From the NCBI RefSeq assembly GCF_001997385.1, contig NZ_CP019633.1, positions 150,001-182,000 on the forward strand: a DNA stretch of 32,000 nucleotides. Reading direction: 5' to 3'. Positions within the stretch are counted from its first letter, which is position 1, and every line of letters begins with the position of its first letter. Origin of the DNA: Sedimentisphaera cyanobacteriorum. Its GTDB lineage: Bacteria; Planctomycetota; Phycisphaerae; Sedimentisphaerales; Sedimentisphaeraceae. A model generated the notes under the pieces. That model had not been told where the DNA came from. It worked only from the letters and a program-made list of their open reading frames with translations, and ran no database searches. The position numbers were made by a program, and so were the translations under genes. Positions 19,357-25,430 of the stretch are shown here, one piece after another.

Positions 19357-19686
19357 CTAAAAAAGTTCCAGCTGTTTTGGGGCAGGGGGTTTTTGACGGC
19401 TCAATTTGCCCCAAAAAACCTTCATTTTTTCGTATTGCTTGTCGGTTACTACAAGAACCCTTACCTCTCCATCAGGCGGAAGGAAATTTTCTACTCTTCT
19501 GGTGTGTACTTCTGCATTTTCTTTGCTGGGGCAGAATCTTTCATAAACAGAATACTGAACCATTGTGAAGCCGTCTTTGATAAGATTTTTCCGAAAGATA
19601 GAATAACTTTTCCTTGCCATTTTTGTATCAGTGGGCAGATCGAACATAACATAAATCCACATCATTCTGTACTCGCTTAAATTCAT
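19357..19686 (-). CDS. cas2: CRISPR-associated endoribonuclease Cas2
   Basis: 109 aa with the type II Cas2 pattern MWIYVMFDLPTDTK..RK.Y..FRK.L.KDGF.MVQYSVYERF. It starts 10 nt downstream of the cas1 stop. Confidence 0.9.
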   Translation of the reverse strand: MNLSEYRMMWIYVMFDLPTDTKMARKSYSIFRKNLIKDGFTMVQYSVYERFCPSKENAEVHTRRVENFLPPDGEVRVLVVTDKQYEKMKVFWGKLSRQKPPAPKQLELF

Positions 19687-19696
19687 AATCTTTTCC

Positions 19697-20596
19697 TTAA
19701 AGCTCTGGAAGGCTCAGTTTCTTTGCTGACCTATCGAAACATTTAGTTAAAGATGCTGCTGTTTTATGAAGACCTGTCATAAGAGGCCCGGAAACCCCTT
19801 CCATTTCGATGGATGAATGCAGCGTTTCCAGCAGGCGGGCTTTATGTAATTGAGATAAATCCTGCAGCTCAGCGGGATTAGGATTTTCATGCCATATATT
19901 CAGAACTTTTTCCTCTATATAGCCTCGGAAAGGCTCCATTATATCATCTGCAAGGCAGAAAGAGTTGTATCTGCTGCAGTGATGTATCCCAAGAGTAGGC
20001 AAAAGGCCCGCACAGCATATAGCTCTCGCTGTAGCAGCCCGAAGAACCATATAGCCGTAATTAAGCAGATTATTTGGCGGTTCGCCACCTCTTTGCCTCT
20101 TGAATTTTCTTCCGCCCAAAAAATATTTCCAGAAAAGCCTGCTTGCCCTTGCTTCAATATTTTCAGGATCACCTGATTTAACTTTAGAGGCAAGCTCAGC
20201 AATCCCTATTCCGACTTCAGGATTATAATTTGATATTATTTTTCCCTGATGAGTTATTTTCGCTTTTATAAGCTGTTTCCAGAGGCGTTTTTTCAATGGC
20301 TGGGAGGCTTGGGTTTGCTGCTTCTGCCTTTCTGTTTGAACAGAATTTGAATCTATGGGAAGCAGCATACCTGCGGGGTTATGTTCTCCATTGCAAAGAA
20401 CAACTGCTGCCCGGCAGTTAAGCAGCTCTGTAAAAACGCTGTGAGTATATAAAACGGCCGAATTGTCTATCAGGAGAATTCCTATATCTTCACATGGGAT
20501 CGATCGTTCAATACCATTTTGGCTTGCGATTACCAATTGGCCATAACGAATGTTCAGTTTGCAGGAATTTTCTGATATTTCAATAATTCGTTTCAT
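19697..20596 (-). CDS. cas1: CRISPR-associated endonuclease Cas1 (type II)
   Basis: 299 aa. The N-terminus MKRIIEISENSCKLNIRYGQLVI and the segments NNLLNYGYMVLRAATARAI...GIHH...FCLADDIMEPFR are typical of type II Cas1. It is adjacent to cas2 and the array. Confidence 0.9.
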   Translation of the reverse strand: MKRIIEISENSCKLNIRYGQLVIASQNGIERSIPCEDIGILLIDNSAVLYTHSVFTELLNCRAAVVLCNGEHNPAGMLLPIDSNSVQTERQKQQTQASQPLKKRLWKQLIKAKITHQGKIISNYNPEVGIGIAELASKVKSGDPENIEARASRLFWKYFLGGRKFKRQRGGEPPNNLLNYGYMVLRAATARAICCAGLLPTLGIHHCSRYNSFCLADDIMEPFRGYIEEKVLNIWHENPNPAELQDLSQLHKARLLETLHSSIEMEGVSGPLMTGLHKTAASLTKCFDRSAKKLSLPEL

Positions 20597-20602
20597 TATC
20601 TA

Positions 20603-24900: not shown

Positions 24901-25262
24901 TCGGTGCTGGCAGGGGGGATCATTTTCCTGCAGGCCTGTTTGAATCTTATGTTTGGCTCTATAAGCCCAAATTCCTTGGCAAGAGAAACAAATCTTTTCA
25001 TCCTTTTCGTTTTGCGTCTTCCTGTTAATCTTGCCCTTCGTTTTTCGCCTCTTATTTTTGCAAGGCTTTTTTGTTCATTGTGGGGCGGCTGAAAAGTCCT
25101 TACGCCTGAATCTATTATTTCTCCTCCCGATATCTTTAGTTTTTTCTTGTGTTCGCCTTCGTATGTTTGGTAATCATATTCTTCTTCTTCAAGATTAACC
25201 AAAGCCCAGCCTACTGAACCAATTCCTATATCCAGTCCTAAAACAACTCTGTTTTTTGCCAT
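21927..25262 (-). CDS. cas9: Cas9 endonuclease, type II-C, 1111 aa
   Basis: RuvC-I [16 protein letters not shown] (D11). Arg-rich bridge helix [20 protein letters not shown]. RuvC-II [51 protein letters not shown] (His codon at 23082-23084, residue 727). RuvC-III [14 protein letters not shown]. It sits next to the array, cas1, cas2 and the tracrRNA. Confidence 0.97.
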   Translation of the reverse strand: [1111 protein letters not shown]

Positions 25263-25289
25263 TTGTAAAACCTTTTTCCTTGAAATTAT

Positions 25290-25430
25290 TTTTTAAACGC
25301 TATAATAATATTCGAAAGCAAGTTACAATAAGCCTTTGCTTAGCAAAGGTTGCGGGGTTAGCCATATTCGGTATCCCCTCATTTATTGTTTTCTAAGGGT
25401 AAGAGCATTCCTCTTGCCCTTTCTAGATTT
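25290..25430 (+). ncRNA. tracrRNA (both ends uncertain)
   Basis: 25314-25329 GAAAGCAAGTTACAAT is the reverse complement of repeat nt 1-16 (15/16 matches). It is followed by the nexus-like AAGCC and hairpin CCTTTGC-TTA-GCAAAGG (25333-25349), then a GGGG...CCCC stem (25354-25378) with a T-rich tail, then a 10-bp hairpin (25396-25420). The motif GCAAGTTACAATAAGCC resembles the Spy and Nme tracrRNAs. A possible promoter is TTGAAA (25280-25285) with TATAAT (25301-25306). Confidence 0.8.

Follow-up and report, generated by a model that had tools for sequence, protein, structure and literature searches.

A type II-C CRISPR-Cas9 locus in Sedimentisphaera cyanobacteriorum with the array placed between cas9 and cas1-cas2

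Features of the locus

A chromosomal CRISPR-Cas9 locus (CRISPR, clusters of regularly interspaced, short palindromic repeats) was analyzed in Sedimentisphaera cyanobacteriorum (Planctomycetota, Phycisphaerae), within a stretch of 32,000 nucleotides that is called the window here. It comprises cas9, an array of repeats and spacers, cas1, cas2, and a gene for the trans-activating CRISPR RNA (tracrRNA). All of these features, including an array of 19 repeats, had been reported in an original prediction made from the sequence alone, and each was located again at the same coordinates. The array lies between positions 20596 and 21927 and thus separates cas9 from cas1-cas2, as had been proposed, and the predicted gap sizes are exact: 26 bp (20597-20622) from repeat 1 to the cas1 ATG and 82 bp (21845-21926) from the last repeat to the cas9 stop codon. 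The features are listed below, with the array given in the sense of the CRISPR RNA (crRNA).

19357-19686, minus strand: cas2, 109 aa (PF09827; TIGR01573)
19697-20596, minus strand: cas1, 299 aa (PF01867; TIGR03639 cas1_NMENI, type II Cas1, 249 bits)
20603-20618, minus strand (cas strand): homopolymer of 16 G (G16), 4 nt past the last repeat on this strand and 6 nt before the cas1 ATG
20623-21844, plus strand (crRNA sense): CRISPR array of 19 repeats (36 nt, all identical) with 18 spacers between them
21845-21926, no strand assigned: predicted leader (integration site of new spacers), with a hairpin at 21848-21886 and TTAC 10-13 nt from the repeat
21927-25262, minus strand: cas9, open reading frame (ORF) of 1111 aa, recognized by Pfam, TIGRFAM, and catalytic residues
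23871-24185, minus strand: lineage-specific insertion in the REC lobe of Cas9, residues ~360-464, ~105 aa, from the alignment to Neisseria meningitidis Cas9 (NmeCas9; 8ja0)
25280-25309, plus strand: promoter-like elements 5' of the tracrRNA, TTGAAA at 25280-25285 and TATAAT at 25301-25306 or AATAAT at 25304-25309, from a consensus scan
25313-25425, plus strand: tracrRNA, with the anti-repeat at 25314-25329, stem-loop 1, stem-loop 2, and a terminator hairpin to ~25421, then TTCTAGATTT

The repeat reads GTTGTAACTTGCTTTCATTTTCATATCGCTTACAAT on the plus strand, and its 19 identical copies are far beyond chance. The 18 spacers, 17 of which are unique, are 29-31 nt long; repeats of ~36 nt, spacers of ~30 nt, and adjoining cas genes are typical of a type II array. 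Neither csn2 nor cas4 could be detected among the ORFs and Pfam matches at the locus, since its flanks are formed by YjbQ/UPF0047 and BacA-PgpA on one side and by Hsp20 and ClpX on the other, with no further cas ORF between YjbQ/UPF0047 and Hsp20. The claim of a complete II-C system, with cas9, tracrRNA, array, cas1, and cas2 but no csn2 or cas4, therefore holds. With all 19 repeats identical and the ORFs unbroken, the type II-C CRISPR-Cas9 system is regarded as genuine and, by all appearances, intact.

Gene order across the lineage

Lineage loci were gathered by exact-protein look-up and by scans of reference genomes and metagenomes, and cas9, cas1, cas2, and arrays were annotated with a single script. 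Approximately 45 database proteins share 44-54% identity with the window Cas9 and belong to the same length class (~1,100-1,140 aa); the lineage as a whole spans 43-54% identity and 1,100-1,160 aa and occurs mostly in Planctomycetota. After near-identical loci were collapsed, 45 distinct loci remained, 40 of which had enough sequence 3' of cas9 to be informative. An antisense array begins 60-160 bp after the cas9 stop codon in 36 of the 40, the canonical order cas9-cas1-cas2(-array) is found in three, and one has neither array nor tracrRNA. Beyond the array, cas1-cas2 follow on the same strand in seven of the 36 loci (the window, L005, L015, L100, L103, L108, and L117) and inverted in one (L003), while in 15 cas1 is missing either from at least 3 kb of sequence past the array or from the locus altogether, and the contig ends too soon to judge in 13. 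The order cas9-array-cas1-cas2 is thus the standard layout of the lineage and no one-off. In a rough neighbor-joining (NJ) tree, which carries no support values, the lineage is monophyletic beside canonical outgroups, the window and its closest relative L001 (54% identity) form the earliest branch, and the three canonical loci make up one derived subgroup.

For comparison, 80 II-C loci from reference genomes were fetched and oriented on cas9. The distant relatives (27-40% identity), which belong to Alphaproteobacteria, Oxalobacter, Helicobacter, and others, show the order cas9-cas1-cas2-array. The II-C layout has been described as "a conserved cas9, cas1, cas2 operon" (Chylinski 2013; PMC3737331). 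Contiguous cas9-cas1-cas2 genes with the array outside are seen neither in the window nor in 36 of the 40 lineage loci. The window locus is still classed as II-C because gene content and phylogeny fit and only gene order differs, and it represents a new architectural variant of this subtype but no new kind of system. Nothing relevant was found in the literature on a II-C array between cas9 and cas1. With regard to the original prediction, the array after cas9 is confirmed, but its presentation as a singular oddity or possible misassembly is not, as 36 of the 40 lineage loci share this position. The proposed unit cas9-array-cas1-cas2 also has to be redrawn: the conserved core is instead tracrRNA-cas9-leader-array, from which cas1-cas2 are often missing.

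Several individual loci deviate from these patterns. One relative (L019/L100) carries a pair of arrays that differ in their repeats, arranged as cas9-array1-cas1-cas2-array2 (array 1 at 11412-12170 and array 2 at 13506-15186 in L019), a possible intermediate between both layouts. In the canonical-order relative L014, the repeat occurs once more at ~7720-7760, just past the tracrRNA terminator, as a degenerate copy of full length in inverted orientation, which may be a rearrangement scar. L127 contains an orphan cas9 of intact length (7001-10306); it has no array, lacks cas1 in the 4.3 kb downstream, and gives no match for the tracrRNA.

Loss and expression of cas1-cas2

The distribution described above suggests that cas1-cas2 are an optional, dispensable add-on that is often lost in the lineage. 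In L001, only the first 21 codons of cas1 remain, and a G16 tract (12243-12258) lies 30 nt before this stub. In the window, the gap before cas1 reads TTTA-G16-TAGATA-ATG on the cas strand, so that the tract takes up most of the 26 bp, and in L116 a further G16 (5345-5360) is located 31 nt past the array. Of 30 lineage loci, 6 show G/C runs of at least 8 nt in the 260 nt that follow the array, compared with 3 runs in the remaining 362 kb, a ~100-fold enrichment. Other loci with G/C runs past the array include L103 (~5270-5298), L007 (~11665-11672), and L105. The tract before cas1 could serve as a ribosome-binding (Shine-Dalgarno-like) or otherwise modulating element, as a phase switch, or as a G-quadruplex; a switch based on slipped strands or a G-quadruplex is possible.

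No terminator-like site was found on the cas strand between cas9, the array, and cas1, and neither the terminal repeat nor the 26-bp gap yielded a convincing sigma-70 promoter from which cas1 could be transcribed. Read-through from cas9 across the array, against the promoters proposed below for the repeats, would be the most economical reading of cas1-cas2 expression and is the most likely route of their transcription. Spacer 3 and the adjoining repeat contain the sole promoter-like sequence seen there, a near-consensus TTGACA-16-TAAATT (20787-20814, minus strand), ~190 nt upstream of cas1, which arises by chance from the spacer and could drive cas1-cas2. In L003, the only locus where cas1-cas2 must have their own promoter, 21-nt tandem repeats (14026-14353) lie upstream of the inverted cas1.

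These observations also bear on the possibility that the locus is an adaptation-silent relic, in which interference works and cas1-cas2, placed behind 1.2 kb of convergent array and the G16 tract, are barely expressed and heading for loss. The absence of cas1 within at least 3 kb in 15 of the 23 array-after-cas9 loci in which this can be determined, the cas1 stub of the closest relative behind the same G16, and the lack of an evident promoter in the gap would all fit such a state, and the identity of spacers 15 and 16 reflects a duplication and no new acquisition. However, both cas1 and cas2 have their full length and score strongly with their family models, seven independent loci hold the same order, and the array retains identical repeats and 17 unique spacers, which makes a relic of this kind unlikely.

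Position of the leader

All 57 arrays examined (canonical and lineage) have a perfect repeat at the cas-proximal end, and degenerate repeats, where present (~17 loci), are always at the far end of the array. Because they are restricted to that end, it is considered the old one (trailer) and the cas-proximal end the leader, which in the window is the end next to cas9. Conservation across the lineage is also seen in the 45 nt that separate cas9 from the first repeat: of 36 loci, 31-35 have TTAC at -13 to -10 and 35 have A at -19. This stretch contains an inverted repeat, GCGTAAC...GTTACGC. The corresponding hairpin was tested as an explicit 11-pair helix in 22 sequences, with slid-partner controls and 500 shuffles. 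Pairing was found in 72.7% of cells versus 27-42% in the slid controls, 8 of the 11 pairs show changes on both sides, and none of the 500 shuffles matched the covariation score. The whole 82-nt interval between cas9 and the array folds at -25.1 kcal/mol (z = -3.7); RNAalifold predicted no consensus structure on the leader alignment. In the canonical-order L014, the hairpin is found between cas2 and the array, implying that leader and array move together.

Read in the crRNA sense, TTTT or ATTT comes after the hairpin in many loci, and for this reason it is proposed to stop the last-repeat transcript. It may thus end transcription from the promoter of the last repeat before it runs antisense into cas9, and/or mark the site of integration. 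Cas1-Cas2 would insert new spacers beside the leader, and spacer 18 (21779-21808) would then be the newest, given a leader at the cas9-proximal end. Spacers 15 (21581-21610) and 16 (21647-21676) are identical, one spacer-repeat unit having been duplicated near the predicted leader end. A comparison of L003 with L004, which has the same Cas9 and an array of one repeat, was considered for locating the variable end and was rejected, as the difference is probably due to assembly collapse.

In most CRISPR types, the leader lies upstream of transcription. By this rule the leader should be on the cas1 side, since the array begins at its 5' end with repeat 1 in the crRNA sense; the 26 bp upstream of it, which contain the tract as C16 in this sense, would then act as the leader, and new spacers would enter beside cas1. 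Such an arrangement is very unlikely, as it would not explain why perfect repeats are cas-proximal and degenerate ones confined to the other end, why 45 nt with a covarying hairpin are conserved on the cas9 side, or why the far side is unconserved and abuts unrelated genes in many loci.

tracrRNA and direction of crRNA transcription

The anti-repeat on the plus strand (25314-25329), GAAAGCAAGTTACAAT, pairs perfectly with nt 1-16 of the repeat, and the repeat:anti-repeat duplex has a predicted energy of -23.4 kcal/mol. A tracrRNA of this kind, in which 3' hairpins come after an anti-repeat that matches the repeat, is characteristic of type II systems. The minimum free energy of the tracrRNA fold is -42.3 kcal/mol (z = -5.3). 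Promoter-like hexamers, anti-repeat, stem-loops, and terminator are arranged in the same way in ten relatives, in which the stems vary in sequence but stay paired. In relatives, TTGACA-N16-17-TAnAnT occupies the position of the window's upstream elements. Compensatory changes were identified in 13 of 32 consensus pairs of the tracrRNA (10 loci). A covariance model (R1) was built from these ten loci. Of the 38 lineage loci searched with it, 37 gave a single match, just upstream of cas9 and always on the opposite strand, versus no match in 8 outgroup II-C loci. An Rfam scan of the window gave no family above threshold at the tracrRNA. By these comparisons, the lineage has its own tracrRNA family. 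The tracrRNA would be a plus-strand transcript that begins ~50 nt upstream of the cas9 ATG and heads away from cas9. In addition, a segment 3' of stem-loop 2 (25386-25393; TTGTTTTC in the window and ATTATRACT in relatives) can pair with the RNA's own anti-repeat (25314-25321); it resembles the 5' end of the repeat (alignment columns 78-85 versus 9-16) and could be an auto-inhibitory or triple-helix element.

Complementarity alone is insufficient to assign the crRNA strand. The plus strand is assigned because hexamers upstream of the anti-repeat and hairpins and a T-run downstream of it are present on this strand only. The crRNAs are therefore predicted to be plus-strand transcripts, antisense to cas9, cas1, and cas2; this part of the original prediction is borne out by the anti-repeat and the tracrRNA elements around it, which are conserved in relatives. 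It had also been put forward as unusual, which it is not: every canonical II-C relative fetched has the same direction, the distant canonical relatives carrying ATTGTAGC...CTACAAC or the alphaproteobacterial equivalent on the cas strand, which is the antisense orientation. For N. meningitidis and Campylobacter jejuni, RNA-seq has revealed transcription of the arrays in the direction opposite to that of the cas operon (PMC3737331). Antisense crRNA is thus the norm in II-C systems.

The repeats themselves probably contain promoters. In N. meningitidis, every repeat contains a promoter, and the 6th nt of each spacer is where crRNAs begin (PMC12477760). In the crRNA sense, TGnTAYAAT, an extended -10 element, forms the 3' end of most lineage repeats, and the repeat in the window ends in GCTTACAAT, in which TACAAT is kept, with TTGCTT 16 nt upstream. 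By analogy with Neisseria II-C systems, each repeat of the window array is likely to carry a promoter at its 3' end, and each spacer-repeat unit would be transcribed separately toward cas9.

The opposite polarity would imply a single cas9-array-cas1-cas2 operon with functional crRNAs derived from the minus-strand transcript. The shared strand would make for one simple operon, and the complementarity of repeat and anti-repeat leaves the strand unfixed. Nevertheless, the anti-repeat, three conserved hairpins, T-run, and upstream promoter-like elements are on the plus strand only in 37 loci, the TGnTAYAAT elements at the repeat 3' ends face in the plus-strand sense, and the polarity determined by experiment in N. 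meningitidis and C. jejuni agrees with the plus strand, so that a minus-strand origin of the crRNAs is highly improbable.

Spacer targets

The crRNA:tracrRNA pair is predicted to guide Cas9 to cut double-stranded DNA beside a protospacer-adjacent motif (PAM). Within the window, no spacer self-match was found at up to 8 mismatches. The 3' 21 nt of spacers 18, 15/16, 14, and 4, the four tried, were absent from IMG/VR, and a search of the whole array against INPHARED phages yielded only a chance-level match to a Vibrio phage (E 0.4). The exact repeat was likewise absent from the metagenome contigs searched. No PAM could be inferred because no protospacer was found.

Cas9 protein

Over its entire length, the window Cas9 shows 100% identity to a protein that NCBI lists as Cas9 from Sedimentisphaera cyanobacteriorum, so that the databases already include the gene under this annotation. 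The protein matches the Pfam families HNH_4, RuvC_III, and Cas9_RuvC and scores 536 bits with TIGR01865 (cut-off 100). It shows the hallmark of type II systems, a single large effector with a split RuvC domain (motifs I-III), an inserted HNH domain, and retained active-site residues: D11, E640 (IEIATE), H727 and N750 (HNH), and H870 and D873 (HHALD). As had been predicted, all of them, including the HNH histidine at 727, could be read from the translation, and their columns are invariant in an alignment of 22 lineage members; Cas9 keeps both nuclease active sites.

Among solved structures, the best relatives are NmeCas9 (E 2e-104) and then GeoCas9, both only distantly similar, with SpyCas9 far lower (E 1e-14). 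Both this PDB ranking and the NJ tree, in which it stands beside canonical II-C outgroups, group the protein with II-C effectors. In the alignment to NmeCas9 (8ja0), window residues 6-359 correspond to Nme 11-343 and 465-922 to Nme 334-784, leaving ~105 aa (360-464) as an insertion, in line with the enlarged REC lobe proposed earlier. A second insertion of ~16 aa (residues 27-44) is located in RuvC-I. The HNH histidine is found at 727 here and at 588 in NmeCas9 because of these two insertions, together with smaller differences. The REC insertion is kept in all lineage members of the alignment. An AlphaFold2 (AF2) sub-model of residues 330-480 (151 aa, 15 aligned relatives) reached a predicted local distance difference test (pLDDT) score of 85 and a predicted template modeling (pTM) score of 0.73, and in this model the insertion appears as a compact alpha/beta module. 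A Foldseek search of the model against the PDB returned no match (best E = 5). A full-length AF2 model was dropped as too poor (pLDDT 59, pTM 0.32).

No relevant literature on a Cas9 of Sedimentisphaera, Phycisphaerae, or Planctomycetes was found, and the supplements of the catalogue of Gasiunas et al. 2020 (79 orthologs) contain no planctomycete entry. The description of the protein as a candidate uncharacterized Cas9 remains appropriate, since no characterized near-relative appears in the PDB ranking, the literature, or the supplements of the ortholog catalogue.

Genomic setting

The locus is surrounded by housekeeping genes and is AT-richer than its flanks, with a G+C content of 38-41% versus 44-52%. 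On one side, PgpA (phosphatidylglycerophosphatase A) and BacA (undecaprenyl-diphosphatase) are fused in one ORF (17476-18855, plus strand). A second defense gene is found nearby: a DpnI-family methyl-directed restriction endonuclease (Pfam DpnI and DpnI_C; 30892-31665, plus strand) lies 5.6 kb from cas9. The PGRP-like amidase mentioned earlier as part of the genomic context was not seen among the window ORFs scanned.

Overall interpretation and implications

Taken together, the locus is very probably a chromosomal and apparently functional type II-C immune locus, in which the core of the lineage, tracrRNA-cas9-hairpin leader-array, is combined with plus-strand crRNAs. Several points weigh against this reading: cas1-cas2 have been lost in 15 relatives, and adaptation in the window locus might be silent or of little strength; the anti-repeat spans no more than 16 nt; the repeat does not have the TG of the extended -10 found in most relatives; no U-run accompanies the window's leader hairpin on either strand; and no protospacer was found in IMG/VR, INPHARED, or the window. 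A misplacement of the array between cas9 and cas1 during assembly, which the repeats, as a classic cause of misassembly, and the G16 tract beside the junction could hint at, is excluded for practical purposes because both the cas9-leader-array and the array-cas1 junctions recur in many assemblies made independently, by several projects and with more than one technology (the same layout being found in NCBI metagenome-assembled genomes (MAGs), JGI, Logan, and ENA), the leader next to cas9 is conserved, and the record is a 2.95-Mb contig.

As an extension of the preferred reading, the lineage may have a self-sufficient tracrRNA-cas9-leader-array unit with a detachable adaptation module whose expression is set by the architecture itself, through antisense repeat promoters (the longer the array, the less adaptation) and through a hypermutable G16 switch. 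This idea is speculative and quite unlikely to be right. Control of spacer acquisition by crRNA abundance has reportedly been shown for Neisseria Cas9 in recent work. If the idea is true, the locus would provide a transcriptional counterpart to that control and a case of phase-variable CRISPR adaptation.

The analysis defines an uncharacterized Cas9 lineage with at least 45 distinct loci, mostly in Planctomycetota. The parts for reconstitution, namely the protein, the repeat, and a tracrRNA whose structure is supported, have been mapped, and a single-guide RNA could be composed of a spacer, GTTGTAACTTGCTTTC, a loop, and tracrRNA positions 25314-25425. With these parts and a REC insertion that has no solved structural relative, the lineage is a reasonable candidate for PAM and activity screening. 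Moreover, the gene order of type II-C systems is not fixed: the leader and array go with cas9, and the adaptation genes are optional and repeatedly lost, which bears on the gain, loss, and regulation of CRISPR modules. Testable candidates for the control of spacer integration and of adaptation-gene expression are provided by the conserved hairpin of the leader and by the G-tract that recurs before cas1. The accepted view of how Cas9 systems work is unchanged.

Comparison with known systems

The Cas9 loci of Geobacillus stearothermophilus and C. jejuni have the canonical gene order. GeoCas9 (8uza, 9ar4) and C. jejuni Cas9 (5x2g) are, like the window protein, compact II-C effectors with a homologous RuvC/HNH core, but their similarity to it is lower and the REC insertion has no aligned counterpart in them. 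The nearest Cas9s outside the lineage are those of the outgroup II-C loci L020-L023 (MAGs of Deferribacteraceae and Alphaproteobacteria; 37-40% identity). These loci resemble the lineage in their repeats, which read ATTATAGC...CTATAAC on the cas strand, and share with it an antisense array and a degenerate repeat at the far end, whereas their order is cas9-cas1-cas2-leader-array and they show no match to the tracrRNA model R1.

The NmeCas9 system (PDB 8ja0, 6jdq) resembles the window locus in many respects. Both have a 36-nt repeat that starts with GTTGTA and ends with TACAAT, crRNAs antisense to the cas genes, and a cas-proximal leader, and the promoters embedded in the Neisseria repeats probably have counterparts in the window; both contain only cas9, cas1, and cas2, and the catalytic residues of Cas9 are the same. 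On the other hand, the order in Neisseria is cas9-cas1-cas2-array, while in the window the leader and array follow cas9 directly and cas1-cas2 lie past the trailer. The window system further differs in the alpha/beta insertion of ~105 aa in the REC lobe, the ~16 aa in RuvC-I, a 16-nt anti-repeat, a repeat without the TG of the extended -10, and a tracrRNA that belongs to a different family.

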